Shown here in pieces: positions 3,504-28,548 of a DNA stretch of 64,000 bases (its first letter is position 1; every line of letters begins with the position of its first letter). The notes beneath the pieces were generated by a model. The model was not told the DNA's origin, did no database searches, and saw only the letters and a list, made by a program, of their open reading frames with translations. Source of the DNA: Candidatus Wallbacteria bacterium (GTDB lineage Bacteria; Muiribacteriota; UBA9980); assembly GCA_041441465.1 (NCBI GenBank), contig JASDSY010000029.1, positions 72,197 through 136,196 on the forward strand. The letters run 5' to 3'. The position numbers were made by a program, and so were the translations under genes.

Positions 3504-3535
3504 ATTGCAAATATTGAATAAGGGATGGTTCTTAA

Positions 3536-4387
3536 ATGATAGAAAGATTAAAAATGTTGAGCGAACTCGTTAAATTCGAGCACTCGATATTCGCTTTGCC
3601 GTTTGCATTTGCCGGAGCTTTAATCGCCGGTAACGGCAGCGTGAGTTTCATAAAGCTGTTCTGGATTTTTGTAGCCATGAACGGCGCGTATATTGCCGCT
3701 ATGGCTTTAAATAGAATTATAGACGAAGCGATTGATGCCCGCAATCCCCGCACAAGCGGCCGGGCGCTTCCGATGGGCGATATATCGCGTATGGGAGTCT
3801 GGCTTATCGTTATTATTTCGCTGGCGTCTTTTTTCTGGTCAGCTTACAGCCTGAACATTTCTTGTTTATATCTCGCGCCGGTCGCGTTAGTTCTTTTGAG
3901 CATTTATTCATATACGAAAAGATTTACGAGTTTATGTCATTTATATCTCGGATTTACACTCTCAGCGGCTCCGGTCGGCGCGTATATGGCAGTTACACCC
4001 GAATTTACGCTTATTCAAATGGTCCTTGCCTGGTGCGTGATGTTCTGGGTCGCCGGGTTTGATATTATTTACGCCTGCCAGGATATCGAGTTTGACAGAA
4101 GCAACGGAATACATTCGATTCCGGCGGTTCGCGGAATGTATGGTGCGCTTATTATTTCAAGGCTTATGCATTTTTTTACAATAGCGGGTTTTATCGTCGC
4201 CGGATTTTTAATAGCGGCCAGATATCCTTATTATATTGCCATCGCTATAAGTTCAGCACTTCTTGCGTATGAACATTCTCTTTTAAAAGACGGCAGCCTT
4301 GACAAGGTGGATATAGCGTTTTTCCAGGTTAACGGTTATGTGGCTGTTATTTTTATTGCAGGCGTAATGGCTAATTATTACTTATAA
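3536..4387 (+). CDS. ubiA: UbiA-family aromatic prenyltransferase, paralog 2 (tandem duplicate)
   Basis: 283 aa with the same architecture, NRIIDEAID motif, a second conserved block GFDIIYACQDIEFD and identical length. Confidence 0.85.
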   Translation: MIERLKMLSELVKFEHSIFALPFAFAGALIAGNGSVSFIKLFWIFVAMNGAYIAAMALNRIIDEAIDARNPRTSGRALPMGDISRMGVWLIVIISLASFFWSAYSLNISCLYLAPVALVLLSIYSYTKRFTSLCHLYLGFTLSAAPVGAYMAVTPEFTLIQMVLAWCVMFWVAGFDIIYACQDIEFDRSNGIHSIPAVRGMYGALIISRLMHFFTIAGFIVAGFLIAARYPYYIAIAISSALLAYEHSLLKDGSLDKVDIAFFQVNGYVAVIFIAGVMANYYL

Positions 4388-14200: not shown

Positions 14201-16429
14201 CAGGTTAAAATAAGGGGATTCAGGATAGAAATCGGCGAAATCGAGGCTCAGATGCAAAAACACGAGCAAATCGAGGCTGTGCTCGTGCTCGCCAAGGAAG
14301 ATGAATCCAAAAATAAATATTTGTGCGCGTTCTATTCGTCGAATGAAGAAATACCTAATTCGGATTTAAAGGCGTTTCTTGCTAAATCGCTCGCTAATTA
14401 TATGATTCCGTCATTTTTTGTGTGGGTAAAGGATATGCCGATCAATTCCAGCGGCAAAATCGACCGCAAGACTCTCGAAAAACTTGAAATTAAAAAGCCG
14501 GTTGAAGTTAAAGTCGATCCGCAGAATGAAAAGGAAGAAAAAATCGCCAGGGTCTGGCGCGAGGTATTAAATATTCAAAAGATCGGCATTAATGAAAATT
14601 TCTTTGAAATAGGCGGCCACTCTTTGAAAGCGGTTGCTGCGGTCGCTAAAATGCAAAATGATTTTGACGTTACGATTAACGATATTTTCAAATACCAGAC
14701 AATATTTGCGCTTGCCGCTAATTTAAAGGATAAGAAAGGTAGTCTTTCAGGAAAACTTGCTGAGATCAAGGCTAAGTCGGCGGAAATATCCAAAAAATCC
14801 GCTGAATTTATGGAATCAAAATGGTATCTTGATTTTGTTAAACAATATCAGGAAAAAAATAAGAAATACGAAAAAATTGATATCCATAAAAGAAAAAACT
14901 ATAAAGCTGTTTTATTGACAGGTGCTACAGGCTACCTTGGCGTATATTTGCTGCACGATTTGCTGAAATATTATAAATGCGATATTTATGTTCCGGTAAG
15001 AGGCAAGACCGACGGCGACTCTTTGAGAAGGCTTAACGAAAAATACCGTTACTATTTTAATTCGGAATTGACCGCCGCGCAGCTTGAACGGGTTAAGGTA
15101 ATATGCTGTTCGGAACTGCAGGATGAAAACCTCGGAATAGATAAAGCAATTTATGATAAATTAGTGGATACCGTCGACTGCGTAATTAATCCGGCCGCAA
15201 ACGTTAAACATTACGGCCGCTATGAGGAATTTTACGCGCCGAATGTCGGGGCTGTGGCAAATCTTGTTAAATTCGCGGCGTCAGGCATCAAAAAAGACCT
15301 GCATCATGTATCGACTGCTTCTGTGGCCAGCGGTTATATCGAAGGTACGGATTTTTCCGCGTTCTGCGAAGATACCTGCAATGTCGGCCAGAAATCTGAC
15401 AACCTTTATATAATTACGAAATTAATGGCCGAGGAGCTGGTCATTAAAGCGCGCGCCGAATTTGGCATTAACACGAACATATACAGGGTCGGCAATATCT
15501 CGTTTAATTCTGAAACAGGGCATTTGCAACAAAATGTCGAGGAAAACGCCTTCAGCACCATGGTCAAGTCGTTCGTCAACCTGGGCGTTGTACCGCAATC
15601 AGATGACATGGCCGAACTTTCGTTCGTAGATAAGACGAGCGCCGCAATTTTAGTTTTATTCGATAAGGCGAACCTTTTGAACGAGACTTATCACATTCAT
15701 AATTCAAAGCCTGTTAAGCTTTCCGATATATTGACTTCAAAAAAACTGGGCCTGTCCGTCGAAGCCGTCCCGTTGGAAACATTTATCGACAGACTTGGCG
15801 AGCTCGATAAAAAAGAATGCTTCAGGCAGCATGTTCAGAATTTCATGCTTCACCGCGGCTGGCTTTCGGAGTCTGGGCCTGAAACGCAGTTCGCTCTGCA
15901 TTCCGAACGTACGTTCATGCTCTTAAAAATGCTCGGCTTCGAGTGGCCTGAGCTTGACGAGATGAAACTTATCCAATTAATAACAATGTCGCTTAAGGAC
16001 AGAATAAAATTCATAATGGATTCGGAATTATTCAATAACATTCCATACACCGTACAGCGTGAGCTGGCATTCATTTCAAGGGAATTGGCGGTCGACGAAA
16101 ACGATACGCTGATATGGGAAGATAATGAATGCGAGAATATGTATATGATTGTCGACGGCGTCGCTGAAATCCAGAAAAGTTCAAAAAGCGGATGGGTTGG
16201 CACTATTATGGTCGCATCTGCCGGCGATGTCATCGGACTTGAAGCGCTGCTTGATAAAAAATCAGGAACGACGGCGGAAGCTATTATGGGCGATTTGACA
16301 ATACTAGCTTTTGATAAGAAAAAAATTAACTCGATATTAAAAACGGCGCCTGAACTTTGCTACAACCTGTTTAAGTTCGCTAACGCGCAGAGCGGAAGAA
16401 TGGCGGGAATGATCGCGAACTTCGCTTAA
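8273..16429 (+). CDS. Bimodular nonribosomal peptide synthetase: C-A-T-T / C-A-T-R plus a C-terminal cNMP-binding-like domain
   Basis: 2718 aa. C1 HHIIFDG at nt 8681-8700. A1 core LAYIIYTSGSTGKPKG at nt 10058-10105. PCP1 FFKIGGHSLKA at nt 11186 and PCP2 FFSIGGHSIKA at nt 11507. C2 HHIIFDG at nt 12071. A2 LSYLIYTSGSTGKPKG at nt 13469. PCP3 FFEIGGHSLKA at nt 14600. Thioester-reductase Rossmann motif LLTGATGYLGVYLL at ~nt 14911. Crp-like beta-roll (YMIVDGVAEI...AGDVIGLEALL) at ~nt 16040-16400. SD-like ggtggag lies upstream of the ATG. Confidence 0.95.
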   Translation: MNNQKNQVYYEISHAEKRMFYLQKFYKDTTMCNIPHTVLFDKPVDFPLLNRAINIFIKNNQNLRIRFCEINDEPKQYFSDFSETNFEIINFSAAEAMEKWAAAKSLETFGDLYEKDLYKIVLINLGDKRGGFFVNFHHIIFDGMSFAFFTDKIYEYYGKLLNNENIPEEKFTLYSEYLKDENAYLNSKSAQDDLKYWKNIFSTDVEQLELKPGADNTSIDIKRNYHRVSNELNDKIYKYCSKNNISVYKLFMACLYTYYNRLTQKEDLVISTTHHNRSEGFKKTTGMFISTLPLRLKFSPDITFKELLTLYLNEFDEMMKHQKYPTDMLISELRNEKRDIENVFNIMAAAYIKSDNSKINVKSYANSNSVSAVTYFISYNNKEKLPVELMIDYKTSIYNENEASLMAGHIFNILNAVTGDDNIKINKIDFLTDSEKRRLINEFNDTAAYYPADKTFIDIFDEQVIKTPNKKAVVYLDKSYTYLELYNRAEKLAHKLRGLGIKRDDIVSIFVDRSLEMFVAAVGVLKAGGAFMPIDTKYPADRIEFMLADSQSRVFLTQKHLIEKAKFDGTIIDLDDQSLYSADCPKVNNVNKPQDLAYIIYTSGSTGKPKGTMIEHGSLLNFSFWSKNFHNLTENDNTAKHASFGFDASIVEVFPPLIAGCEIHIISEDIKLSLVELNEYFEKNKIRYAFLTTQLAEQFMENIDNKSLRWLDTGGEKLRTFKKRDYQLVNVYGPTECTVYTTAFQVNKNYENIPIGKPLSNAKIFITDRFGNLMPEGYCGELCVAGVCLSRGYLNRPETTAEKFIECPFSPKERMYKTGDLVRWLPNGDIEYIGRIDNQVKLRGFRIELGEIEQEIMKIDGIKTSAVTVISEGDNKLLCAYIVSESKISDDVIKNTLTATLPEFMIPSYIVRLETMPVNASGKIDRKALPAPNIKIETQSAYVAAEGEIETRLLKMWKETLGIENFGVCDNFFKIGGHSLKAVMLQAKIERDFGVRVPVRKIFEAATIRLQAELIKAEKSGTSNIDLERLAAEQSSGKKVIERGMASVYIEPATNTEKALIKIWEELLNVDGVGTGDNFFSIGGHSIKAVTMQYKIEKEFKARIPVKDIFKAPTIRELAVLIDGAEKVSAIETSVSLGDKNYYPSSSVQKRLFMIEQKDGSSTTYNIPMAMRIKGRLDDSRLSDSIEKMIERHEALRTSFAMIDGEPMIKINKDVKLKKIYQKAEESELGDIMKDFLKPFDLTKAPLFRIKLVKISDENHVLLIDVHHIIFDGMSLEIFMKELFEIYSGQTLPALEYQYKDFVAWQQKYLKSNKMIEQEKAWLEMLSGELPVLNMPTDHARTAEPGLAGAQYDFFIEHELSSKLKNYANKTQSTLYMVFLSALNIMLSKYCSQEDIIVGSPLLGRPTIESQQMLGMFVNTMPVRNYPKPDKKANEFIDEVKRNFFNVIDNQDYQLDTLIEKLNIKRESSRNPLFDVIFVFQTSQGIKDTRYGDIMVSPGTIETGTAKFDLSLQAYEAGDYIKCMLEYRCSLFEPDTIKRMSMHLSNILEQIADNPEIALKDIELITDSEKKTVLYEFNMNDMDYPKDKTVHELFEVNAELYPDRGAVVYKDKKYTYRELNERANMLARCLIKNGVKPRGFVALISEKSAEVALCALAIQKAGACYVPIDPSYPQDRIEYMLGDTASNVVLCQKELIDKVPFNGVKINIDDESIYSGASDERKNLDIKVNPEDLSYLIYTSGSTGKPKGVMIEHRSIINLCWWEINKYKLTHEDKITQYVSICFDPSVGCEMFLSLLAGAELHVVAPELRMDPVKLNEYMEKNKVTFSILPTQFYEQFSELTDNKSLRYLMVGGEKLKAYKKANYKLINAYGPTEYTVVTTAFNVEKDYENIPIGSGVANSRLYVLDKYNKLMPVGVYGELCISGDGLARGYLNRPELNSEKFPADPFLEGKKMYRTGDLVRWLPDGNIEFNGRIDFQVKIRGFRIEIGEIEAQMQKHEQIEAVLVLAKEDESKNKYLCAFYSSNEEIPNSDLKAFLAKSLANYMIPSFFVWVKDMPINSSGKIDRKTLEKLEIKKPVEVKVDPQNEKEEKIARVWREVLNIQKIGINENFFEIGGHSLKAVAAVAKMQNDFDVTINDIFKYQTIFALAANLKDKKGSLSGKLAEIKAKSAEISKKSAEFMESKWYLDFVKQYQEKNKKYEKIDIHKRKNYKAVLLTGATGYLGVYLLHDLLKYYKCDIYVPVRGKTDGDSLRRLNEKYRYYFNSELTAAQLERVKVICCSELQDENLGIDKAIYDKLVDTVDCVINPAANVKHYGRYEEFYAPNVGAVANLVKFAASGIKKDLHHVSTASVASGYIEGTDFSAFCEDTCNVGQKSDNLYIITKLMAEELVIKARAEFGINTNIYRVGNISFNSETGHLQQNVEENAFSTMVKSFVNLGVVPQSDDMAELSFVDKTSAAILVLFDKANLLNETYHIHNSKPVKLSDILTSKKLGLSVEAVPLETFIDRLGELDKKECFRQHVQNFMLHRGWLSESGPETQFALHSERTFMLLKMLGFEWPELDEMKLIQLITMSLKDRIKFIMDSELFNNIPYTVQRELAFISRELAVDENDTLIWEDNECENMYMIVDGVAEIQKSSKSGWVGTIMVASAGDVIGLEALLDKKSGTTAEAIMGDLTILAFDKKKINSILKTAPELCYNLFKFANAQSGRMAGMIANFA

Positions 16430-16751: not shown

Positions 16752-17462
16752 TTATAAAAATTGCAGCTTTTCTAAATCTATATAATTGATTTCGTATGAT
16801 ATATTTTGATTGCCGCAGGCGCAAAGCGCCGCTTTATAGCCTTTAAAATCGTTTATTCGCTTGAAATTGCAGTTGGTATTAAAACCCATTTGGCACGAAA
16901 CTTTTATGCTGTCATCGTTAAAGTCTAAGACAAATTTTGTAGGTTCGAGTGATAAGCCGGTGCCAAGGTATTTTATGTAACTTTCTTTAAGTGTCCATAA
17001 TTCATAAAAGTAATCGATTTGGGAATTTTTGGGAATGCTCTTGAATCTTTCGCATTCTTCCGGTGAAAAATAACTGCCGTTCATACTTAAATCGACAGGT
17101 TCTATTTTTTCTATGTCGATGCCCACTTCACTATCATAAAAAGCTAGTAAAACAAAATCTCCGGAATGTGAAATATTAAAGTAAAAATCATTACGGCCCT
17201 TTAAATAGACTTTTCCATTGGCATTTTTTTCTAACTCAACATTAAGCGGGCCGATATTCAGATTTTTCATAAGAGAATGCTTTAATAATAATATCGCGCC
17301 AATCGAGCGCAATGAATCGGCCTCGAACCTGAATGAATTAACTTTCATTTTTTCATCGCGGTTTAAAATACCGGAATAAAGGCCGAGAAGATGGCTGATC
17401 GAATTATTTTTTATGCATGCTGCGTATATTTTGATGCCGGTCATGGTCAAAATATAACACAA
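16752..17462 (-). CDS. Sfp-type 4'-phosphopantetheinyl transferase
   Basis: Motifs GKVYLKG...FNISHSGDFVLLAF and VGIDIEKIE fit PPTase motifs (GKP / FNxSHS / GxDxE). The true start may be the internal Met at 17444. The gene sits next to the NRPS. Confidence 0.75.
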   Translation of the reverse strand: MCYILTMTGIKIYAACIKNNSISHLLGLYSGILNRDEKMKVNSFRFEADSLRSIGAILLLKHSLMKNLNIGPLNVELEKNANGKVYLKGRNDFYFNISHSGDFVLLAFYDSEVGIDIEKIEPVDLSMNGSYFSPEECERFKSIPKNSQIDYFYELWTLKESYIKYLGTGLSLEPTKFVLDFNDDSIKVSCQMGFNTNCNFKRINDFKGYKAALCACGNQNISYEINYIDLEKLQFL

Positions 17463-17544: not shown

Positions 17545-20223
17545 ATGCAAAAGCTACCAATTATTATTCCGGAGTACTATAAATTAAGCAATGGATTTTC
17601 AATCTGCCTGTGCGGCAATTTTCCTTATAAATCCTCGCAAATATCGGTTTTATTTTTGTCTAAATGCGGGCTTTATTCAGAAACTCCTGAAAAGGCCGGA
17701 ATTACACATGCTCTTGAACATATGCTGTTTAAAGGCACGAAAAAACACAGCAATTTTGAATTTATGGCCGAAATTAACTCTCTGGGCTCGTCAGTTGACG
17801 CTTTTACAGCCGCCGATTCAATGTGTATCGAACTTATGTCGCCGGCTGATAATTTCGAAAAATCATTTTCACTATTTTCAGATTTGATCTTAAACCCGGT
17901 ATTCCCTGAAAAAGAAGTCGAGCTTGAAAAGAAAGTTGTAATAAATGAAATTCTTTTTTATGAGGATGATCCTGAAGATTTGCTGACGCTGCGCCTCGAA
18001 AGTGAATGTTTCAAAGGGACATGTTATCAAAATCCAATACTTGGAACGCGAAACAGTGTTAATTCGTTGACACGCGAAGAATTTCAAAAATATCATAAAG
18101 ATTATTTCACTCCGGAAAATTGCATGATGACTGTTATCGGCGATTTTAACGAACCTGAAATGGCCGGATTTATCGAGAAGTTTTTCGGCGAAAAAAAATG
18201 GAAACGTTCAAAGACCGGCCCTAAATATTTTAATTTAACAAATATAAACGATAAACCGACGCACAGCGTTATAAAAAGACTTGATAAGTTTTCACAAAAT
18301 TATCTCGGCTTCTCATTTGTGCTGCCGCCCTCGATCGCCGGAATTGATTCGTCGGCCATGATTTTGCCTTATGTGTTCAGCTCATTGAAATCATCGCCGC
18401 TCGGCTTTTTACTGCGCGAAAAAAATAATATCGTAAATGCTTTTAGCGCCGATTTGATATTTAAGCAGGGCGCATGGATGATGTCTCTTATCGCTTCGTG
18501 TGAGCCGCGTTATATGAATAAGGTTAAAAATATTATTCTTAATTTTATAAAAAGAGCTTCGTCGCTTGTTTCCAGAGAATTATTCGAAAGCGCCAGGAAT
18601 TTAATATTGCTCGATTACTTTCAGGAAATCGAGACTGCTAAGAATTATTGCAATGAACTTACCACATTTAACCATATAATCGGCGAAACTTCCTATAACA
18701 AATCTATCGAAAATCTTCTTAAAATATCATACGAAGATTTTCTTGATTATCTTTCTAAATATGTTGAACCGGCAGTTTTACATTTTGTCGAAATAATTTC
18801 GAAAGAAGTAAATTCATTTAAACACAATGCGGAATACATAAAACTTAAAAATCCTGACTTGGGCAAAGCTAACGCCGCAAATTTCGGATATGAAAATTCA
18901 TTCTATAAATTAAAAAAATATAACCCTAAATTATCTGCGGATGTTTCATGCAATACGGATAATCCGGCAAGACCTATTATCTCAACCATAGATACATCAT
19001 TGTTGTACTCAACCCTTAATATGTGGATCGAGGGCGGTGTCATAGCCTCACAAATACCCGGAGACGCTTATATTTTTAGCGAATTATTCGGCAAAAAAAC
19101 TCACTTATTGTCAAGTTATGATAATTTTATAAAAAATGACTATCTCGGCATATATTATGACTGCAACATATTTCTTGATTATGTCCTTATAGAAGCCGTC
19201 TGCCCTGGTAAATTTACCGGCGATAAAATAAAAAGGCTCGATGAATTTCTAAATGATTTTGATTTTACAGGCGATATGCTGAAAAAAGCCAAGCAGGTCG
19301 TTAAACGTTCAGTTGCAGGCGTTTATGACGATGTGTTCGAATATCCGTTCTGGAATTTCATTAAAATCCTTTTCGAAGGTAAATGCTATTCAAAATCAAT
19401 ATTCGGTAATGAAAAGTTTTTGTCTGAAATCAACGCGGAAAACGTTATTAATTATTATAACAACCTCAAAAACAGCTCGTCGAGATATTGCATTTCATAT
19501 TCAGCGGCCGTAAATTCAGCCGAAATTATAAAAAATAATCTTTCTTATATTAATTTATCAAGCCGGCGTCCGTTAGATATAAATCCCAATATGCAGGGCG
19601 GCAAATTAATTAACGGCTGTTCCAATATATTCAATAAATTTGATAAAAACGCTTTTTTAAACTCCGGTATCGGCGGCAAAACCATTGAAATAAAGTCAAG
19701 GCAGCAGCAGGCTACCGTTTTAATAGGCGGTTACGCTCCTGAAATCGCTAACGGCGATTCATTGGCTTTTTCTATAGCTAATTATATACTCGCCGATTAT
19801 ACCGGTAAAAGATTATGGGATCTGCGTGAATCCCACGGCCTGTGCTACAACATATTTTCTGAATATATTCCGTTGGCATACTCCGGCGTGTTTTTTTGCT
19901 ATGCCAATACCGACATAAATAAACTTGGTACCGTCGCCGAAAAAATATGCTGCGAACTAGATAAGTATTGCGCTGACGGCCCTACCGAAAAGGAAGTGGC
20001 TGAAGCTAAAATGCAGCTTATAAAGAAGATGGAGCTGGGGCTTAATTCGAGTGCCAGCCTGTCAAAAGCTGCCGGTAGTTCCATATTTTACGGCAAAACG
20101 CTGAGTGAATTCCTTGAATATAAAAAACGTATCGAAAGCGTTGAAGTGAATAAAATCAACGCGGTCATAAGAAAATACATGTCACCAAAAAAATTGCTTA
20201 CTTTAAGGGTTTTGACTTCATAA
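17545..20223 (+). CDS. Two-unit M16-family zinc metallopeptidase (pitrilysin-like; inverted zincin HxxEH)
   Basis: 892 aa. The inverted zinc motif GITHALEHMLFKG lies near residue 56, and the length fits a fused active plus inactive M16 unit. Confidence 0.8.
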   Translation: MQKLPIIIPEYYKLSNGFSICLCGNFPYKSSQISVLFLSKCGLYSETPEKAGITHALEHMLFKGTKKHSNFEFMAEINSLGSSVDAFTAADSMCIELMSPADNFEKSFSLFSDLILNPVFPEKEVELEKKVVINEILFYEDDPEDLLTLRLESECFKGTCYQNPILGTRNSVNSLTREEFQKYHKDYFTPENCMMTVIGDFNEPEMAGFIEKFFGEKKWKRSKTGPKYFNLTNINDKPTHSVIKRLDKFSQNYLGFSFVLPPSIAGIDSSAMILPYVFSSLKSSPLGFLLREKNNIVNAFSADLIFKQGAWMMSLIASCEPRYMNKVKNIILNFIKRASSLVSRELFESARNLILLDYFQEIETAKNYCNELTTFNHIIGETSYNKSIENLLKISYEDFLDYLSKYVEPAVLHFVEIISKEVNSFKHNAEYIKLKNPDLGKANAANFGYENSFYKLKKYNPKLSADVSCNTDNPARPIISTIDTSLLYSTLNMWIEGGVIASQIPGDAYIFSELFGKKTHLLSSYDNFIKNDYLGIYYDCNIFLDYVLIEAVCPGKFTGDKIKRLDEFLNDFDFTGDMLKKAKQVVKRSVAGVYDDVFEYPFWNFIKILFEGKCYSKSIFGNEKFLSEINAENVINYYNNLKNSSSRYCISYSAAVNSAEIIKNNLSYINLSSRRPLDINPNMQGGKLINGCSNIFNKFDKNAFLNSGIGGKTIEIKSRQQQATVLIGGYAPEIANGDSLAFSIANYILADYTGKRLWDLRESHGLCYNIFSEYIPLAYSGVFFCYANTDINKLGTVAEKICCELDKYCADGPTEKEVAEAKMQLIKKMELGLNSSASLSKAAGSSIFYGKTLSEFLEYKKRIESVEVNKINAVIRKYMSPKKLLTLRVLTS

Positions 20224-20245
20224 ACATTTTTTTAATATTTTTATA

Positions 20246-20766
20246 CGGGGGACACAAAGGGTTTAACCCTTTGATTTCCCCCGCACCCCCTCTTTAATCC
20301 TGCTATATCTACCGTTGCTTTGGGCGATTCTATCGTTTTATTTTGTGATTTTTAATATTCGCAAAGCGCGGCCTGCGCCGCTTACTTTGCGAATATCCAG
20401 CAATCGGCCGCGAGAATTTATCATATATTTACGCTATATCGTTTGCGGCCGAAGGTGAAGAAACATGAATGGCTGAAGCTTTTCCTCGGCACGTGAAACG
20501 TGCTAACACAGACTTCAAAGTATCTTGTAACTGCATTTCGCGTAAGCTTATGCGTGAGTATCAGCTTACGCGATTGCTGAATTTGTGCAAAGGAAACAGT
20601 TTAGAAACAAAATAAAAAAGCACTATTGATATAATAAAAATAATACTCTAAAAAACTTTTTACGAGTGAACGACTTCCGCAGGCGCACTTGTGGTCGAGG
20701 GTCGGGCTTGGCGCCGAGGACCAAGTGAACGAGAAAAAAGTTTTTTTATTCCTTATCCGCCCCCTT
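20246..20766. repeat. Structured GC-rich noncoding element, copy A, in the convergent gap after pilO
   Basis: No ORF. 5' nested G-rich hairpin gggggacacaaagggtttaaccctttgatttccccc. Decamer aatcctgcta at 20296-20305. Bulged hairpin at 20355-20396. Further perfect stems at 20404-20451, 20489-20503 and 20539-20572. 3' motif ccttatccgccccc at 20751-20764. Copy B at 25031-25445 is homologous. Confidence 0.6.
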
Positions 20767-20812
20767 TATGTAAAAGTCACAATAGCTTCGTGAATGGAAA
20801 GAAAAAAAATAT

Positions 20813-21385
20813 TTATTTTTTTAATATTTCGTTAAGGTTAATTTTCCCTGACGGCGAGTAAAAAGAATAAGAAATTAATGTCGGTGCGTCACTTAGTTCT
20901 TCTATTGTGATAGATTCCGTGAGTGCTCTCCTGTTTGAGCATATATTGGCAGATATATTCAAGAAATCTGAAATTTTGATATTTTTGATGTTCAACGTGC
21001 CGCTTAATGATTCCATAAAAGCGAAAGTTTTGATTCCGTAAGTTAATTCATAATCAGGTACGGCGGTTACTTTTTGAATTATTTCCCTGATATTTCGCTG
21101 CTTTATTTCGATAGTCTCGGTCGAAGCATTTTTTGAAACCGTGTCTGAAATGATATTTATGTCTTTTAATAGATTTTGTTTTTCGCTGTTTAATGCGCCG
21201 GCTTTTGTTTCAGCCTCTTGAGCGCGGCTTTCGAGCGATTGTGCGGCCTGCTTTAATGACGCCGCATCGCTTCTTTGCGGAAGCACGACTATTATTCTGA
21301 AAAAACCGACAAGCAGAAGGATAAAGGTGTTTATCGCGATTATATAAATGATTTTATTTTGAATGCTATCGTTCAAATATTTCAT
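20813..21385 (-). CDS. pilO: PilO-like type IV pilus inner-membrane assembly protein
   Basis: 190 aa with a single N-terminal TM helix then a coiled-coil region. It is the last gene of the pilC-B-M-N-O order. The sequence assignment is weak and rests on context. Confidence 0.45.
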   Translation of the reverse strand: MKYLNDSIQNKIIYIIAINTFILLLVGFFRIIVVLPQRSDAASLKQAAQSLESRAQEAETKAGALNSEKQNLLKDINIISDTVSKNASTETIEIKQRNIREIIQKVTAVPDYELTYGIKTFAFMESLSGTLNIKNIKISDFLNISANICSNRRALTESITIEELSDAPTLISYSFYSPSGKINLNEILKK

Positions 21386-22031
21386 CCCCTTTGATTTTAA
21401 TGATTACGCGCGCAGAAACGCCGTTAAGATTTGATCCTGAGGCTGCCGGAGTGTTTGTTCTGGTTTCGGCGTATTCGTTATTTATGAAAACGCTTTCGAC
21501 CCATTTTATTTTTTTGAGCTGCTCAATAAATGCTGAAAGAGCGTTCATATTTTTAACTGTTATAAAAAAGCTGCCCGTTAAGCTGCCGAAGTTAATGTTG
21601 AAATTTTTAACGCTCAATATTTCAGGAATATTCCTGCGTATCTTCAGAATGTCGTTAACTATTTCCGTATCGTTTGTTTTGCGGCTTGTCAGTGAACTTT
21701 GCGAATTTTTCAGGCTTTCTTTAAGTTTAGATATTTTTGTCTTTACCTCGTCGCTTATTGCTATCTCGGCGCTTTCGCCTGAAAACATTCCGCCAGCCCT
21801 GACAGTATTATTTTTTAGCGCCTTTTCATGCTGGTTTATTTTTGACTGCAGCGCTGAAATTTTTAAATTCGCGTCGTAAATTTCGCCTTTATAATCGTAA
21901 TAACTATACATCGAAAATATGAAATAGAGGAACGGAATAATTGAAATACCGTATTTAACGGCTTTGAATGACAATGAATTTTCATTCATTGCCGGCCTGG
22001 CAATTTTAAAATCCATTTTTATGCTTTTCAT
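21366..22031 (-). CDS. pilN: PilN-like type IV pilus inner-membrane assembly protein
   Basis: 221 aa with a TM helix (ISIIPFLYFIFSMY) plus coiled coil, downstream of pilM. It overlaps pilO by 20 nt. Confidence 0.45.
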   Translation of the reverse strand: MKSIKMDFKIARPAMNENSLSFKAVKYGISIIPFLYFIFSMYSYYDYKGEIYDANLKISALQSKINQHEKALKNNTVRAGGMFSGESAEIAISDEVKTKISKLKESLKNSQSSLTSRKTNDTEIVNDILKIRRNIPEILSVKNFNINFGSLTGSFFITVKNMNALSAFIEQLKKIKWVESVFINNEYAETRTNTPAASGSNLNGVSARVIIKIKGDEIFER

Positions 22032-22108
22032 TTTTGCTCCGATTCTTCCTTAAAATTTTACAATGCTATCTATAATTTAAATATATTCTTTGTGTTATTG
22101 AAAACAGG

Positions 22109-23086
22109 CTAATTTGTGCCGTCGAATAGTAACGGCGAATATTGTATTTTTTCGGTATTTTCCAGAAGTTTTATGTTAACAGCCAGAAAATTTTCTAAAA
22201 ATAATTTAATATTGGGTGTTTTTCCGAATCCGCCTGAGATTACTATTTCAGAAAGTTTTATATGCGGATATTTCGATATAAAAAACTCGTAGGTTATATG
22301 CAGTTCCTTTAAAAACTTGTCAGTTGCCTTAAGTTTATGTGATTCAAACTCGGAAAGCGAGTTGAAGTCGATTTTATCCGGAAAGATTTTATGTTCCGAT
22401 ATTTTTTTTGCAGATTCGCTTTTGGAAATTGGATGTTTAAGTTCGAGTGTTTCTATTATCTCATCGGCGAAATGCCTGCCTGCTGTTTCTATTATCCTTA
22501 CATAAACCGGTTCTGAGTCCACGAAAAAATAAAATGTGGTAACCTCATGGCCGATGTTTAATAGTCCGAAATTTTCCTTTAAAATTCCATTTTGTGAAAT
22601 GAAATTATATATTGCATGACACGACATATCGATTGACATAATTTTTATTTTCGCGTTTTCGAATAACTCGGTCAATTTATTTATCAATTCTTCTTTTACA
22701 AGGCAAACGTAGCAGTCGGCGTATAATTTGCCGGTTTCGATGTCTTTTTCGGTTTTGCATATATGCGCGTCTATTTTACAGCCGCTGTAAACTTCCTCGC
22801 GGATCTGGTCGCGCGCGCGCCAGAGGATATACTCTTTTGTGTATTCGGCCGGTAAATCGTTTACTCTTACGAATATCTGCCGCGCCCACTGGTCAGGCAG
22901 AAGAAGGTTGATTTTGGTTATTCCCTCTTTCCTTAATTTTTCAATATATCCGGCAAGTTCGGTTTCGTTTATTTGCGGAATTGTAAAAGTGCCGCCGATA
23001 ACGTCATTTCCAAAAATATATTCGTGAAAATTTCCGTTTTTTGTGTATTTAAGGCTGTATCCGCCTATGTCCACGTTAGAAACCAC
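22109..23086 (-). CDS. pilM: PilM, actin-like type IV pilus assembly ATPase
   Basis: 325 aa. N-terminal VDIGGYSLKY (actin-fold phosphate-1) and C-terminal ISGGFGK, in the pilB-pilM-pilN order. Confidence 0.7.
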   Translation of the reverse strand: MVSNVDIGGYSLKYTKNGNFHEYIFGNDVIGGTFTIPQINETELAGYIEKLRKEGITKINLLLPDQWARQIFVRVNDLPAEYTKEYILWRARDQIREEVYSGCKIDAHICKTEKDIETGKLYADCYVCLVKEELINKLTELFENAKIKIMSIDMSCHAIYNFISQNGILKENFGLLNIGHEVTTFYFFVDSEPVYVRIIETAGRHFADEIIETLELKHPISKSESAKKISEHKIFPDKIDFNSLSEFESHKLKATDKFLKELHITYEFFISKYPHIKLSEIVISGGFGKTPNIKLFLENFLAVNIKLLENTEKIQYSPLLFDGTN

Positions 23087-23109
23087 GGGACGCTCCTTTC
23101 TAACTGCGT

Positions 23110-24981
23110 TTAATCTTCAAATGTAACTCTGTTAATTTCCTCGATTGTAGTCATGCCTTCGATGACTTTTGCCCAGGCAGCCTGCCTGAGAGTTTTCATT
23201 CCTTCACTGATTGCCTGGCTTTTAATTTCAAGCGGCGACGCTTTTTTTAATATCAGCGACTTAATTTCATCGGACAAAGCAAGTGTTTCATAAATGCCGG
23301 TGCGCCCTTGATATCCGGTATTATGGCAGTAACGGCAGCCTTTGCCCCTATATAATTTACGGCCGCCGCAATATTTTTCAAAATCGCTAATTAGGGCCGT
23401 AGTTTCTTTATCAGGAACATATTCCTCTTTGCAGTTCGAGCATATTTTCCTGATAAGGCGCTGTGAAATGATCAGGTTAAAAGATGCGGCGAATTGGTAA
23501 GGTTCGACACCCATATTTGTAAGACGCGCTATAGCGTCTATTACGTTATTGGCGTGTATCGTCGAAAGTACAAGATGGCCTGTTAATGCTGCATTGACTG
23601 CAATTGCGGCAGTTTCGGTATCGCGTATTTCGCCTATCATGATTTTATCCGGGTCCTGTCTTACAATCGAACGAAGTCCAGACGCGAACGTCAGACCCTT
23701 TTTTTCGTTGACGTTAACCTGGACTATATCGGGTATCTGGTATTCTACGGGGTCCTCTATCGTAATGAGTTTGTCTTCAGGTGTTTTAATCGCTTTAATG
23801 GCCGAATAAAGCGTCGTGGTTTTGCCCGAACCTGTCGGCCCAGCCGATAAGATCATTCCGTAAGGTTTGAATATGTTTTTTTTGAATTTAAGCATATCTT
23901 CAGACGGGAATCCGAGTTTTTCAAGGTCAAGGCCGACCGCGTTCTGGTCTAAAATTCTTATTACGACGGTTTCACCAAAAATGGAAGGCAGTACGGATAC
24001 TCTGAAATCTATGTTTCTGTCGTCGATATATGCCTTAAAACGACCGTCCTGCGGCACGCGTTTTTCTGAAATATCGAGATTAGCCATATTTTTAATTCGC
24101 GATACTATAAAGTTCCGCGATTTTGGATCGATTTTTTTCACGTTAAAAAGCGCGCCGTCGATCCTGAATTTAACTTTCATTTCTTCTGGATAGATCTCAA
24201 TATGAATATCTGATGCTTTTTTGCGTATGGCTTTTATTAATATAGAATTAACCGTATTAACGATAGTCGCGTCGGAATATGTCTTGAGAAATTCCATATC
24301 GCCTTTATCATCGGTATCGTCTTCGCTGAGACTCTTTATAGCGACTGTTTCTTCGGTTTCAGAAAATAACGCGCTTTCACTTAATGAAGTTTCGGCCACA
24401 AGGTTGATCACTCTCATAATTTCGGATCTTACAGCTACGTAAGAAATTGTTGGAATACCTATTATCGACTCGATTTCTTCGATGCGTTCCACATCTGACG
24501 GGTCGTCCATTAATATTATTAATTTGTCGCCCTCTTTTTTGTATGGTATGAAGTTATAACGTCTGACAATGTTTATATCGAATTGGGAAAAAAGCGCGTC
24601 GTCAATTTTCATTTCGCTTAAATCTATGAATTCGGTTTTATGCTGAATGGCTACGGCTTTATAAAGATTTTTAGGCTTAATAAGTCCGCGGTCAACGATC
24701 AATTCTTTTAAATTTAACGGCATGCCGTTAAATTCATTTATTATTTTTTCGAGCTCGAAAGGCGAGAGCATTCCTTCGGAAATCAAAACATCCTCGAGCG
24801 AATGTGATTTCATGGCATAAAAATAATATTTATATGCGTCGTTTTCGTCCAATAAAACGCCGTCAGCAATTAAATTTTTTAATCCGTCTTGAAAATCTTT
24901 TGTAACCAGCTCATTGTAATTTTCAAGGGTGATTTTGCCTTTTAATTTAAGCTCATATAATATCTTTTCCCAGACTTTCAT
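23110..24981 (-). CDS. pilB: PilB/GspE-family type IV pilus assembly ATPase
   Basis: Walker A GPTGSGKTTTLYSA, Asp box, His box and the tetracysteine CSNC...CRYC motif are present. SD ggaggc lies upstream. Confidence 0.9.
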   Translation of the reverse strand: MKVWEKILYELKLKGKITLENYNELVTKDFQDGLKNLIADGVLLDENDAYKYYFYAMKSHSLEDVLISEGMLSPFELEKIINEFNGMPLNLKELIVDRGLIKPKNLYKAVAIQHKTEFIDLSEMKIDDALFSQFDINIVRRYNFIPYKKEGDKLIILMDDPSDVERIEEIESIIGIPTISYVAVRSEIMRVINLVAETSLSESALFSETEETVAIKSLSEDDTDDKGDMEFLKTYSDATIVNTVNSILIKAIRKKASDIHIEIYPEEMKVKFRIDGALFNVKKIDPKSRNFIVSRIKNMANLDISEKRVPQDGRFKAYIDDRNIDFRVSVLPSIFGETVVIRILDQNAVGLDLEKLGFPSEDMLKFKKNIFKPYGMILSAGPTGSGKTTTLYSAIKAIKTPEDKLITIEDPVEYQIPDIVQVNVNEKKGLTFASGLRSIVRQDPDKIMIGEIRDTETAAIAVNAALTGHLVLSTIHANNVIDAIARLTNMGVEPYQFAASFNLIISQRLIRKICSNCKEEYVPDKETTALISDFEKYCGGRKLYRGKGCRYCHNTGYQGRTGIYETLALSDEIKSLILKKASPLEIKSQAISEGMKTLRQAAWAKVIEGMTTIEEINRVTFED

Positions 24982-25030
24982 TTTGCCTCCGGTATGAACT
25001 AATTAGGTTTTATTTAATATTGATTTAAAG

Positions 25031-25445
25031 TCAGGGAAAGGCGAAGGGATTATCCCTTCCCTTTCCCTGAAACCCTATCCAATCCTGCTACTTTTTTGTT
25101 CTTAATCATCGCGAAGCGCAAATTTCATTTGCTTACTTCGCGATGATCCGGCATTCAAAATGAAACTGTTATTCATAACAGTTTCATTTTGAAACGAAGA
25201 GTTCAGATTTCCACATCGTTTTTTTATCAAATTGTTACGCATTTCGTGGCGTTCGACTGCAAACGATAAGTATGGATAATCTGAAAAATTTCACGCAGTC
25301 GATTGCCATGTTACATCAAACGCCGCGCGTTTGATGTAACTAAAAACGCAAAAAAATATAATCCGCCATCACAACGGTAGAAATAGCGGGAGTCACAGGG
25401 GGAAATGGGGGAGATAGAGGGCCATTGGCCTTCTGTCGCCCCCAT
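25031..25445. repeat. Structured GC-rich noncoding element, copy B, between pilC and pilB
   Basis: No ORF. 5' nested hairpin cagggaaagg-cgaagggat/tatcccttc-cctttccctg. Decamer aatcctgcta at 25081-25090. Bulged hairpin at 25105-25147. 19-bp palindrome at 25154-25193. 13-bp-arm hairpin at 25310-25338. 3' motif ccttctgtcgccccc at 25429-25443. Confidence 0.6.
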
Positions 25446-25468
25446 CAAAATTCCCTGGTAATAATTTA

Positions 25469-26692
25469 TCAATTAACGATAGTAGCCGCACCGATCATTG
25501 GAAGAAGGATAGCTATAATAATAACACCAAAAATTCCAATTACGCTTATTAATATAATCGGGCCGAACGCTGACTCGAGCGTGTTTATAATATCGTCAAG
25601 TTCGCTTTCCATAGTTTCCGAGATATGTTTAAAGACTTCGGGCAGATTATTGGAGTCTTCGCCGGCTTTGATGAGGCCGGGAATAAAACCGGCCGCGAAA
25701 TTCGACTGCTCGAATGAGTGATAGATAGAATTGCCGGTCTTAATGCTTATGACGGCGTTTTTGAGCCGTTCCAGTATTATGTTGTTACTGATGACATTCT
25801 GACTAACTTCGATCGCGCTAATGACATTTATGCCTGAATTTATAAGTAATCCGGCTGTTTTATAATATATAGCTAAAGTTTTTTTATAAATGAATTGATT
25901 GATTACAGGAAGTTTAAGTGTAAATTCGTCGATAATACGAGCGGCTTCCGGAGTTTTTTGCCATCTATATATTACGTAAACAAGAAGGCCTGACATAAGG
26001 AGAAGCTGAAAATAGAATTTAGCGATAATATCGGCGATAAAAAATACGAATTCAGAAACGGGCGGAAGATTGGCATTCATTTCCGAAAAAAGTTTTGTGT
26101 ATGTGGGGACGATGCTTACGAAAAGGTAGCTTACGGCGATAGTGCTTAAAATCATTATTATCAGCGGATATAAAGAAGCTGATAATAATTTTTTTTGAAG
26201 CGCCTGTTTTTTCTGGTAGTAATTGCGCAAATTATCGAGGGCCGGGCTTAAGTTGCCGGTAGTTTCGGCGCTCGCGATGGTTTTAACGAAAAGTTCGTCG
26301 AATATGTCGCCGCGCCGCGACAGTGCTATTGAAAGCGGGATGCCGTGCGCGACTGAAGTTTTGATATCATTTATTAACTCTGCGGAATAGCTGTCCGGGG
26401 ATTTTTCCGATAATGCTTTAAACGCCTCAGTAACTGACATGCCTGAATTTAAAAGCATCGCTAGTATTCTTGAAAATTCGATTATATATGAATTCTTCTT
26501 GAATTTAAATTTCAGTGCCTGCAGATTTTCGTATGTGAATACATTAGAAAATCCCGACTGGCTTTTTTCGATTTCGAGAGGAAAATAGCCCTGATTGGTA
26601 AGAGCTGCGCAAACTGCCTCGCGCGTCTCGCCTTCGATAGTAAATTGTTCGGTTTTACCCTGCCTGTCGGCGACTTTAACTTTATAATTCAT
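25469..26692 (-). CDS. pilC: PilC/GspF-family type IV pilus platform protein
   Basis: 407 aa with two T2SSF-type repeats and three TM segments, upstream of pilB on the same strand. Confidence 0.85.
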   Translation of the reverse strand: MNYKVKVADRQGKTEQFTIEGETREAVCAALTNQGYFPLEIEKSQSGFSNVFTYENLQALKFKFKKNSYIIEFSRILAMLLNSGMSVTEAFKALSEKSPDSYSAELINDIKTSVAHGIPLSIALSRRGDIFDELFVKTIASAETTGNLSPALDNLRNYYQKKQALQKKLLSASLYPLIIMILSTIAVSYLFVSIVPTYTKLFSEMNANLPPVSEFVFFIADIIAKFYFQLLLMSGLLVYVIYRWQKTPEAARIIDEFTLKLPVINQFIYKKTLAIYYKTAGLLINSGINVISAIEVSQNVISNNIILERLKNAVISIKTGNSIYHSFEQSNFAAGFIPGLIKAGEDSNNLPEVFKHISETMESELDDIINTLESAFGPIILISVIGIFGVIIIAILLPMIGAATIVN

Positions 26693-26882
26693 TATTTTGC
26701 CTTTTTATAAAAAAATGCATAATTTAGGGATTATTATACATCATTTAAGTTACTTTTACAATGTATTAATAAAAATAACTAAATTTTGAGTATTTAACCT
26801 ACAATATGCACTAAATAAAATTGAATTTACTATTTTTTTACTTTACAAAAAGAATATTTGTGATATTATTAAATTTTTATAA

Positions 26883-27140
26883 ATGTTTAATAATAAAATT
26901 GAAAAAATAGAAGATGCTTATAATAAGTATATCCTGATAGAAAAGTATTCATACATTTCAAGTATAGATAAGATACGTGAGAATGAATTTAATCTCAATA
27001 TTCCTCGTTATGCCGATACTTTTACAGGAGAAGAACACGTTGACATGGATGCTGTAAAAGAAAATATCGAAAAAAATTGAGGACGAACTTAAAGGCATAA
27101 AAGCGCAAATGAATAAATACCTGAAAGAACTTGGTTTATA
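26883..27140 (+). pseudogene. hsdM: Remnant of the C-terminus of a type I R-M M subunit (HsdM), frameshifted
   Basis: ENEFNLNIPRYADTF, VDMDAV and KENIEK resemble the conserved HsdM C-terminal tail (dynLsvsrYv...). After the stop, the next frame continues IEDELKGIKAQMNKYLKELGL, which is also HsdM-tail-like. No N-terminal methylase domain is present. Confidence 0.45.
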
Positions 27141-27652
27141 AGCGAATTAGCGCATTTATTAAAATTGCGACAGCCTGTTGCAGAATTTAATATTAAGATT
27201 ATAAAGGGTTTATGTGGCATTACTAGTGAAATCACGAATTAATTCATTTAAAATATAGAAACCATGATAAAAATTTCCATTATTTCTTAATGGTTTTAAT
27301 GCCTGATTGGAAAAAGAGAAAAGAAATTTTAGATCAAGAAGTTATTAAAGAATTATAAAATGTTACTAATTGCGAGGCTTAACAGTGTGCTTGCTTGCGG
27401 TTGCGTACCGTTCTTTTGGAAAAAAGTTTACAATCCAACTTTTAGTTGTAGCAAATTCGCCATAATCAAAAGTCAGGCTGGTTTGAATAGTTATAAATTG
27501 AGCGTTACCGAACGGACTGAAAAAACAAATGCTATCGGATTGAAGGCAGCTGCCGTACGATATGGCGGAATATATATTACATAAAGATATTGCCTTTGAA
27601 TTTGGAATGTGGATTAGCGCTGAATTTAAGATATATTGTAAGGCGGTCAGTT

Positions 27653-28411
27653 ATGGAGATTTCGGTAAAACATAAAAAAAATATTTCTGATATATCATTA
27701 AATGGGCCAGAATGTTTAAATAATAACAAAGCTGAAGATTATAATAAATCTGGAATTAATTATTATGACAATAAAGATTATAAAAATGCAGAAATAGAAT
27801 ATATAAAAGCGATACAACTTGAACCAAATGTAGCCGTTTATTATTTTAATTTAGGCAATGCTTATTTTGATCAGGATAAAGATTTAGAAGCGGAAATTGC
27901 ATATCAAAAAGCAATTCAACTGAATCCGGCCGTCGCTGCTTATTATAATGAGTTAGGATACTGCTATCTTGTTCAGGAAAAGTACGCTGACGCCATAATA
28001 AAAATAGCAAAAGCAATTGAACTTGAACCAAATACGGCTGATTATTATGACAGCTTAGGCGATGTTTACTGGTATCAAGGAAAATACTTTGAAGCAGAGT
28101 TACAATATAAAAAAGCGATACAATTAGAACCAAATGCTGAGCTTTTTTATAATAATTTAGGTAATGCTTATTATTGCCAGGGAAAGTATGGCGAATCAGA
28201 AATGCAATATAAAAAGGCGATTGAATTAGAACCAAATACGGCTGATTATTACAATAATTTAGGCGATGTTTATTATTGTCAGGAAAAATACGATAAAGCG
28301 GAAGCAATGTATAAAAAAGCGATAGAGCTTAATCCGGAAGTCGCGGAATATTATAAAAATTTAGATGCCGCTTGTTCTGAACAGGACAAACATGCCGAAT
28401 CAGGAATTTAA
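27653..28411 (+). CDS. TPR-repeat protein
   Basis: Six or more 34-aa repeats of the form AxxxYxKAIELEPNxAxYYNNLGNAYYxQGKY. The start was chosen at the in-frame Met 27653 because upstream of it lies a KilA-N-like remnant in another frame. Confidence 0.7.
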   Translation: MEISVKHKKNISDISLNGPECLNNNKAEDYNKSGINYYDNKDYKNAEIEYIKAIQLEPNVAVYYFNLGNAYFDQDKDLEAEIAYQKAIQLNPAVAAYYNELGYCYLVQEKYADAIIKIAKAIELEPNTADYYDSLGDVYWYQGKYFEAELQYKKAIQLEPNAELFYNNLGNAYYCQGKYGESEMQYKKAIELEPNTADYYNNLGDVYYCQEKYDKAEAMYKKAIELNPEVAEYYKNLDAACSEQDKHAESGI

Positions 28412-28548
28412 TATACCAAAGTAAGTACTTTCGACTAAAAAGTGGAAATGAATTAACAGATGATAGTTTAAAAATAAAGTGTTATCACTTAACTTAAATA
28501 TTTAAAATAATAAAATAGTAATAATGCGCTGATATAAAATTAAATTAT

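Follow-up and report, generated by a model that had tools for sequence, protein, structure and literature searches.

Two elements in a type IV pilus gene cluster of a Candidatus Wallbacteria bacterium represent a dispersed family of structured, probably mobile repeats

Background

Miniature inverted-repeat transposable elements (MITEs) that fold into hairpins occur in transcribed intergenic DNA of bacteria, and include the Correia elements of Neisseria, ERIC/IRU of enterobacteria, RUP and BOX of pneumococcus, and Nezha of cyanobacteria. Repetitive extragenic palindromic (REP) sequences, bacterial interspersed mosaic elements (BIMEs), and REPIN doublets are mobilised by RAYT (TnpA-REP) transposases of the HUH type. 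The present analysis concerns two noncoding elements, termed A and B, in a 64-kb stretch of contig JASDSY010000029.1 from a Candidatus Wallbacteria bacterium; this whole stretch is called the window. Both elements reside in a type IV pilus (pil) gene cluster, and the intervals under study were positions 20246-20766 (A) and 25031-25445 (B) of the window.

A and B are probably members of a dispersed, non-autonomous family of mobile repeats resembling MITEs and REPINs. This interpretation is favoured because copies are dispersed at unrelated sites, their ends are mirror images that share a motif, variants are mosaic, contigs break within the repeats, and B is absent from the orthologous junction of relatives. 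The family was previously undescribed, but is of a familiar kind; a literature search on Riflebacteria combined with repeats returned nothing relevant. The position of A and B in the pilus operon is incidental. Recognition of these two odd gaps in the operon as probable insertions of a repeat family, and not pilus regulators, guards against mis-annotation.

A and B share a structured unit

An earlier note, made from the sequence of the window, had proposed that A and B are two diverged copies of one noncoding element. Pairwise local alignment supports their homology: A 20227-20305 aligns to B 25009-25090 with a score of 36, compared with 20.5 +/- 2.3 for shuffled sequences, and a second collinear block joins A 20341-20405 with B 25092-25156. 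The strongest similarity, which is absent from the earlier note, is between A 20267-20453 (plus strand) and the reverse complement of B (25421-25252), with a score of 47. Because the best match of A is the reverse complement of the right part of B, B carries a ~200-nt unit twice, in inverted orientation. The description of the elements as having shared ends and divergent middles was incomplete, in that both elements are made of two structured units of ~215 nt in inverted orientation. The part of A taken as its divergent middle and 3' portion is conserved in a metagenomic copy, L092 (73% identity over 298 nt, E 1.5e-46).

Most details noticed in the sequence were borne out. Nested G-rich hairpins are present at 20246-20283 (A) and 25031-25070 (B), and homologous bulged stem-loops, whose stems differ by compensatory changes, are present at 20355-20396 (A) and 25105-25147 (B). 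The decamer AATCCTGCTA occurs exactly at 20296 and 25081; by itself, this 10-mer is within chance (3 matches at <=1 mismatch vs 4.6 expected). The pattern CCTT-N4-CGCCCCC is found at 20751-20764 (A) and 25429-25443 (B). Neither interval holds a credible open reading frame (ORF), as had been claimed: A contains only ORFs of <=56 aa, and B contains short ORFs only, plus the start of a 98-aa ORF that extends antisense into pilC. The statement that both intervals are far more GC-rich than their surroundings was exaggerated, as the GC content is 0.434 for A and 0.424 for B vs a window mean of 0.366, and coding DNA near the elements reaches 0.45-0.50. Also, what had been called the 5' end of B is actually its last-transcribed part, since the pil genes are all on the minus strand.

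When the three window copies of the unit are aligned, the layout is H1 - C-rich spacer - TCCYGCTATWTCTACCGTTG - A/T-rich linker - H2 - GGCAATCG - H3 - CGAA. H1, an outer nested G5/C5 hairpin, is terminal in the unit, and the conserved 20-mer TCCYGCTATWTCTACCGTTG is almost invariant across family members. Compensatory changes are evident in the stem of H2 (ATATTCGCAAAG/CTTTGCGAATAT in A vs ATCATCGCGAAG/CTTCGCGATGAT in B-left) and in that of H3 (TCGGCCGC/GCGGCCGA in A vs TCGACTGC/GCAGTCGA in B-right). B-left is missing ~36 nt after TCCTGCTA. Nine units served to build a covariance model, R1; the sense used, termed "unit-reverse", is the minus strand for A-left. The parts of the two elements are as follows, with minimum free energy abbreviated as MFE.

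20239-20766, unstranded: element A, a composite repeat; full-length homology to L092 1099-1657, with an orthologue in L097
20239-20462, minus strand: A-left unit, type I; R1 197 bits, E 4e-56; MFE -83.0 (minus), -77.0 (plus)
20246-20283, unstranded: H1 of A-left, the outer terminal G5/C5 nested hairpin; inverted repeats, covariation in helices 6 and 7
20298-20317, plus strand: the 20-mer TCCTGCTATATCTACCGTTG of A, which includes the decamer; near-invariant across the family
20355-20396, unstranded: H2 of A-left, a bulged stem-loop; inverted repeat, double changes in 10/10 pairs of helix 3 across the family
20404-20452, unstranded: H3 of A-left, TCGGCCGC...GCGGCCGA, with GCAATCG before it; inverted repeat, double changes in 7/8 pairs of helix 1
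20538-20595, plus strand: decayed inverted partner unit of A, comprising an H3-like hairpin (20538-20573) and an H2 remnant (20571-20595); inverted repeat
20650-20746, plus strand: "module 3" of A, a GC-rich core within arms AAAAAACTTTTT and AAAAAGTTTTTT; inverted repeat, near-identical in L092, consensus hairpin
20751-20766, plus strand: right terminus of A, CCTTATCCGCCCCCTT, half of a type-II terminal hairpin; match to the family right end
25025-25451, unstranded: element B, an inverted unit pair; from the A/B alignments, the unit alignment, and model R1
25025-25201, minus strand: B-left unit, type II, with ~36 nt of linker missing; R1 36.4 bits, E 1e-8; inverted repeats
Parts of B-left: H1 25031-25070; AATCCTGCTA 25081-25090; H2 25105-25147; H3 25154-25193
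25243-25451, plus strand: B-right unit, type I-like; R1 178 bits, E 1e-50; MFE -85.2 (plus), -76.8 (minus); inverted repeats
Parts of B-right: H3 arms 25247-25260 and 25295-25308; H2 25310-25340; 20-mer 25372-25391 (minus strand); H1 25405-25445

Element A is thus 528 bp and B 427 bp in length, and elements of the family range from 366 to 677 bp. On its other strand, the right terminus of A fits the family right-end consensus AAAGGGGGCGG..AAGGAAT. The outer end of B-left is 50 nt upstream of the pilB ATG, and H1 of B-right begins ~25 nt past the pilC stop in the direction of transcription; H1 of A-left begins 23 nt past the stop codon of an M16 peptidase gene. B-left resembles a truncated unit at the start of contig L129.

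A separate observation concerns H1 of B-left. Just upstream of pilB, the minus strand at 25055-25076 reads GGGTTTCAGGGAAAGGGAAGGG, which is a canonical four-tract G-quadruplex (G4) motif and recalls the G4 upstream of pilE in Neisseria. The motif is one arm of the hairpin, and its G-runs pair with C-runs. Other family members keep three G-runs of at least 3 bases on the corresponding strand.

Units are dispersed in metagenomes and adjoin unrelated genes

An exact scan of Joint Genome Institute (JGI) metagenome contigs for the 20-mer gave 12 hits, nine of which are real and keep the whole unit; the remaining three are chance hits in coding sequence, a few of which are expected. The nine real members are L087, L088, L090, L092, L094, L095, L096, and L098, plus L097, which is the orthologue of A, and seven of the nine come from one sample. 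Thus, eight further copies are spread over two metagenomes, and more are found at contig ends. Metagenome units score 214-245 bits with R1, compared with 197 for A-left, 178 for B-right, and 36 for B-left. A and B therefore are two diverged members of one noncoding repeat family, as the earlier note had suspected.

The genes that flank the other copies encode an amylase/glucanotransferase, Fur and AhpC, a clostripain-type peptidase, a fumarase-class lyase, RuvX and TyrRS, and YtfJ. The orientation of the unit relative to flanking genes is mixed. One copy, L095, is a solo unit that starts 11 nt past a stop codon. The flank beside H1 is TTTG in 5 of 11 aligned units, and is variable in the others.

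Many contigs end within the repeats (L090, L094, L098, L129 at both ends, L131, and L137-L140 after Fur), and the short-read contigs L001 and L002 stop 76-87 nt beyond pilO, within A. Because contigs break in the repeats, the family behaves as a high-copy repeat in short-read assemblies, and it explains their fragmentation at these sites.

Several data link these copies to the window. The AhpC protein adjoining the L092 copy carries the NCBI name Candidatus Wallbacteria, sample SRR24078314 contains both the pilC contig of the window and an L092-type locus, and L097 was found together with six other copies in one metagenome. The organism is also represented in the ERR34383xx series and in JGI Ga0116193. 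The other copies plausibly come from the genome of the window or from closely related genomes. A locus whose PilB is 70% identical to that of the window (L085) carries a diverged unit (46 bits) directly after the last gene of the pil operon, which indicates that the family is older than the species of the window. Beyond this unit, at L085 17410-17869, are further perfect GC-rich palindromes, CCTCCGCGCACGC...GCGTGCGCGGAGG and CATGTGCGCGCG...CGCGCGCACATG; these sequences suggest that related hairpin-rich repeats are common in this clade.

Other searches delimit the family. No other copies of A or B were found by blastn within the window, and R1 with filters off detected only three units across its 64 kb. 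No copy was detected with the model in the 46 of 80 distant-taxon PilB loci that were scanned (L005-L050), and plasmid and phage collections gave no match. A 16-mer scan of viral contigs gave 30 hits, all of which were rejected as chance, as the model finds no unit in them. Between L133 and L134, two strains of one related organism (AhpC identity 90%), a periplasmic-binding-protein gene and a TrmO-like gene (~16.7-18.9 kb) vary in presence, and a methyltransferase gene (near 1.3-1.9 kb) also differs. The repeat family has no copy at these sites of difference.

The dispersed copies bear directly on two other explanations. If A and B were ordinary intergenic DNA, composed of terminator hairpins or decayed genes such as pilins, then their similarity would reflect chance or composition. 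A does stand in place of the four genes, including two pseudopilin-like ones, that follow pilO in relatives, and the H1 hairpins start 23-25 nt past stop codons. However, the homology scores are far above those of shuffled sequences, the ~215-nt unit recurs at 214-245 bits in other contigs, and the elements contain neither a prepilin motif nor a conserved reading frame. The scan for intrinsic terminators found no more than in shuffled sequences, and H1, H2, and H3 lack adjacent T-runs, so that the stems are not followed by the U-tracts of terminators; the earlier note had likewise argued that the hairpins are not terminators. The family evidence refutes this explanation, to which we assign next to no probability.

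The second explanation holds that A and B are pilus-specific cis-regulatory elements, such as a leader, a riboswitch-like RNA, or a protein-binding DNA site. Both window copies are in the pil cluster, B-left ends a short distance upstream of the pilB start, and the diverged unit in L085 directly follows a pil operon. However, the eight further copies adjoin unrelated genes in both orientations, and the unit has no conserved position in the 5' UTRs of functionally related genes. A follows the last gene of the operon and has no gene downstream of it on the same strand, relatives have nothing between pilC and pilB, and no riboswitch family in Rfam, including those for c-di-GMP, matches the elements. 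There is consequently no evidence for a pilus-linked cis-regulatory RNA, which was one of three options put forward in the earlier note, and a pilus-specific role is largely refuted and very unlikely. Of those options, a MITE-like palindromic element is the best, given the dispersed copies, the inverted arms, and the absence of the element from the orthologous site of relatives.

Composite elements have mirror-image ends

The model R1 detects a weak inverted partner beside the strong unit in B, L087, L088, and L096. The composite elements in the metagenome contigs span L087 1482-1847 (366 bp), L088 29-669 (641 bp), and L096 429-1105 (677 bp). Their far ends read ATAGCAGGA-TGGGTGGGGG-N5-AAAGGGGGCGGCAAGGAATAATTCCTTGGCCGCCCCCTTT, which is the mirror image of TCCTGCTAT followed by the C-run and H1. 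Thus, the right ends carry ATAGCAGGA, G-runs, and a hairpin that mirror the left end. B-left and B-right are inverted homologues whose arms have diverged to ~65% identity and represent two subtypes. The type-II unit within which L129 starts has both an H2 and an H3 of its own.

The homology between A and L092 1099-1657 ends just past the right terminus of A, and the shared stretch includes the middle module and the near-identical module 3. The right half of L092 is a clear inverted unit (z 18.8), whereas direct similarity of the right half of A to the unit is weak (z 2.3-2.9). The decayed second arm of A (20538-20595) is therefore accepted solely through its L092 homologue.

Module 3 deserves separate mention. 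Copies are found in the window (20650-20746), in L092 (~1550-1645), and in L096 (1143-1188). The pattern is GGTC-RAGG...GGCYTGGCGCYGAGG...AAAAAGnTTTTT, with its own hairpin, a direct repeat AGTGAACGA at the flanks, and enclosing A/T inverted arms. Because the copy in L096 is outside the composite element, module 3 may be an independent, nested mini-repeat.

B is a probable insertion between pilC and pilB

The genes around the two elements are listed below, with assignments based on Pfam matches except where noted.

20813-26692, minus strand: pilus operon (Pfam matches; synteny with L003 and L083-L086)
25469-26692, minus strand: pilC/T2SSF
23110-24981, minus strand: pilB/T2SSE
22109-23086, minus strand: pilM
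21366-22031, minus strand: pilN-like gene
20813-21385, minus strand: pilO-like gene
17545-20223, plus strand: M16 peptidase gene, with its stop at 20223

The gap from the pilC stop to the pilB start is 487 nt (24982-25468), and element B occupies most of it. In every syntenic locus compared (L003, L083-L086), pilC and pilB are 5-23 nt apart or overlap, and this adjacency in relatives suggests that B is an insertion. The nearest PilB relatives (P0002-P0009) are 70% identical, and the next group is ~48-56% identical, with source names that include Riflebacteria, Ozemobacteraceae, and Wallbacteria. The relatives lacking B at the pilC-pilB junction share 54-70% PilB identity with the window, and no near-identical empty site was recovered. 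In L001 and L002, which are independent short-read assemblies of the same organism, B is 100% identical and has the same orientation.

Element A is in a 589-nt gap (20224-20812) that separates the stop codons of the M16 peptidase gene (plus strand) and the pilO-like gene (minus strand), and therefore occupies a convergent intergenic region. The earlier note placed A where pilP and pilQ would normally be. The position after pilO is correct, but relatives do not have pilP and pilQ there: in L083-L086, the operon runs on past pilO with four genes, two of them pseudopilin-like, that are absent from the window. Because relatives carry these four genes and no prepilin motif is present anywhere in the window, A appears to be at a point of truncation or rearrangement. 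A nonribosomal peptide synthetase (NRPS) gene and a phosphopantetheinyl transferase (PPTase) gene adjoin the 5' side of pilC in L083 (1-6414). In the window, the NRPS gene (8273-16429), the PPTase gene (16752-17462), and the M16 peptidase gene are all beyond the 3' end of pilO. This placement implies that the pilC-pilO block is inverted relative to its neighbours, with A at one junction.

The inverted units might also serve as recombination sites in an invertible switch for phase variation; the segment turned around would be either the central part of B or pilB-pilO, which A-left and B-right enclose. The inverted arms of B are directly upstream of pilB, A-left and B-right are mutually inverted across pilB-pilO, and the orientation of the pil block relative to the NRPS and PPTase genes differs from that in L083. 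However, identity between the arms is only ~65% and no exact match is longer than 10 nt, and the two independent assemblies show the same orientation and identical sequence. Moreover, the window ORFs scanned showed no recombinase domain, and other copies have the same architecture at unrelated loci. These data largely refute the switch, which we judge to be highly improbable.

Several observations on the surrounding genes were made. A secretin gene is present at 36567-38921 and encodes a 784-aa fusion of tetratricopeptide repeats (TPR) with a PilQ/GspD-like secretin, 10 kb from the pil operon, and a second T2SSE ATPase of 583 aa is encoded at 51587-53338, 25 kb from the operon. Pilus and secretion machinery is thus scattered and does not form one operon. 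Directly upstream of pilC, positions 26700-26900 are extremely AT-rich (GC 0.15-0.18), and likely correspond to the operon promoter region or else to the other junction of the rearrangement. A TPR protein gene (27590-28411) contains six tandem 102-nt repeats (27788-28429; 63-73% identity), which are ordinary TPR repeats showing at the DNA level. Finally, two tandem 283-aa ORFs at 2652-4387 are 76% identical in DNA sequence over 300 nt; the one at 2652-3503 matches the UbiA prenyltransferase family and is followed by its partner (3536-4387). They are clustered with UbiD, UbiE-type, and flavoprotein genes.

The hairpins covary and favour one strand

Covariation was counted on a model-fitted alignment of 12 units. 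In this set, 97.4% of cells are paired and double-sided changes affect 29 of 44 pairs. Slid controls yield only 37-48% paired cells and 3-6 double-change pairs, and no shuffle reaches the observed values. Each of H1, H2, and H3 is well supported. A long-range helix proposed by RNAalifold (UGCCGU/ACGGUA) was rejected, because it is 86% paired with one double change. Wobble pairs in H1-H3 are asymmetric on the unit-reverse strand, with 9 G·U vs 1 A·C, and the MFE of this strand is lower by 4-8 kcal/mol in all three window units; the wobble and covariation counts are small. These biases point to selection on one single strand, which may be RNA or single-stranded DNA.

The main alternative explanation invokes RNA. 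The unit could be a multi-copy structured noncoding RNA gene or module, expressed from the unit-reverse strand in the order 5'-H3-H2-linker-CAACGGUAGAUAUAGCAGGA-H1-3', that acts as a trans-acting small RNA, a guide or scaffold RNA, or an element for mRNA processing or stability, and that has spread because it is useful. Compensatory changes preserve its three hairpins while the 20-nt single-stranded motif is nearly invariant, and the wobble and folding-energy biases would suit such a molecule. However, neither sigma-70-like promoters nor intrinsic terminators are enriched over shuffled sequences in or beside the units, and the solo unit in L095 leaves only 11 nt after the preceding stop codon. 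The mixed orientation extends to the window itself, where B-right is antisense to the operon and B-left and A-left are sense. The mirror-image partial H1 and TCCTGCTAT at the far end suit a transposon end rather than an RNA gene, and the contig breaks point to the behaviour of a high-copy repeat.

Searches for known RNAs were also negative. The whole window has no match in Rfam at gathering thresholds, and Rfam searches of both intervals in E-value mode gave sub-threshold noise, the best being BTnc231 at 33 bits vs a gathering score of 80. No tRNA or transfer-messenger RNA (tmRNA) genes were found in the window. On balance, an independent noncoding RNA is a doubtful explanation.

A combined form of these ideas is that the ~215-nt unit is a strand-specific structured RNA on a mobile element. 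By analogy with guide and scaffold RNAs borne by transposons, the scaffold would be made of H3 and H2, the functional, single-stranded part would be the invariant CAACGGUAGAUAUAGCAGGA, and the 3' hairpin would be H1; the RNA would have a partner protein encoded elsewhere or would be a trans-acting regulator, and B might serve as an RNA-level insulator that uncouples pilC from pilB. Although the wobble asymmetry and covariation are compatible with this proposal, we consider it quite unlikely, even more so than the independent RNA.

Proposed mode of spread

The preferred interpretation, a non-autonomous mobile repeat, can be formulated as follows. A complete element consists of two inverted ~215-nt units with H1 at both outer ends. 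One arm is strong (type I) and the other more divergent (type II), and internal modules and deletions are optional. A transposase encoded elsewhere may recognise the structured ends, in the form of H1 and the TCCTGCTAT motif at both, and may copy or move the element into intergenic DNA. The covariation and the strand bias would fit an enzyme of the HUH type, which acts on single-stranded DNA, better than a classical DDE enzyme.

The insertions could have local consequences. The pilC-to-pilB mRNA presumably includes B, whose hairpins might then lower the expression of pilB or uncouple it from that of pilC. With 487 nt of stably folded sequence between the two genes, the stoichiometry of pilus gene products could be altered. 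At the site of A, genes that relatives carry downstream of pilO may have been lost or moved elsewhere.

Several points weigh against mobility. No transposase or recombinase domain (Pfam) was found in the window ORFs scanned or in genes flanking other copies, and no autonomous element with matching ends was found. No RAYT-like gene is present in the 64-kb window, as checked by Pfam on the ORFs scanned only. No empty site was recovered for any copy, as contigs around the L092-flanking proteins either carry the element or stop at it, and no direct repeat that would represent a target-site duplication is evident at the ends of A, B, L087, and L096, where termini are uncertain by ~10 nt. Only two elements are present in 64 kb, both in the pil cluster. 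The covariation counts lean toward the model because the alignment was fitted to it, and intrastrand templated correction in palindromes can mimic compensatory change. Finally, covarying internal hairpins and a near-invariant 20-mer exceed what a classical DDE-type MITE needs, and fit a selected RNA equally well.

Comparison with known systems

The analysis describes a structured repeat family for the first time, with a covariance model, in a candidate lineage that has received little study. If single-stranded DNA transposition or an RNA function proves true, then the family would offer a useful new system for the study of mobile elements that depend on structure.

Among single-stranded systems, palindrome-associated transposable elements (PATEs) derived from the insertion sequences IS200/IS605 share with the present family subterminal hairpins at both ends and strand-biased structure; no target-site duplication is evident here either, within the ~10-nt uncertainty of the termini. 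As in PATEs, a short sequence (TTTG or similar) immediately beyond the main end is partly conserved in several copies. However, IS200/IS605 elements insert 3' of a fixed tetra- or pentanucleotide and their ends are not mutual inverted repeats, whereas the ends described here are mirror images, TCCTGCTAT included, and no TnpA or TnpB gene was found nearby.

The likeness to REP sequences and REPINs is that a hairpin unit occurs either solo or as an inverted doublet, and is dispersed in intergenic DNA at high copy number. Also shared are compensatory changes in the hairpins and strand asymmetry, as recognition of single-stranded DNA would produce. REP units differ in being ~20-40 nt in length with a 5' GTAG-type motif, whereas the present unit is ~215 nt and has three hairpins.

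Correia, ERIC, RUP, BOX, and Nezha elements have no sequence similarity to the present family. The arms of the elements reported here are ~70 to 215 nt, each consisting of three covarying hairpins, and the two arms are distinct subtypes; in addition, unlike for those elements, no target-site duplication or parent insertion sequence was found. In other respects, the resemblance to these MITEs is extensive. Like them, the elements are a few hundred base pairs in length, noncoding, and intergenic, often just past stop codons or inside operons, and they have inverted arms, strong predicted structure, modular or mosaic variants, and no internal transposase. Three of the traits that define MITEs are likewise present: the elements are shorter than ~1 kb and have no coding capacity, as their short ORFs are not conserved between copies; they have terminal or subterminal inverted repeats, in B and as mirror-image ends in L087, L088, and L096; and their copies are dispersed at unrelated sites.

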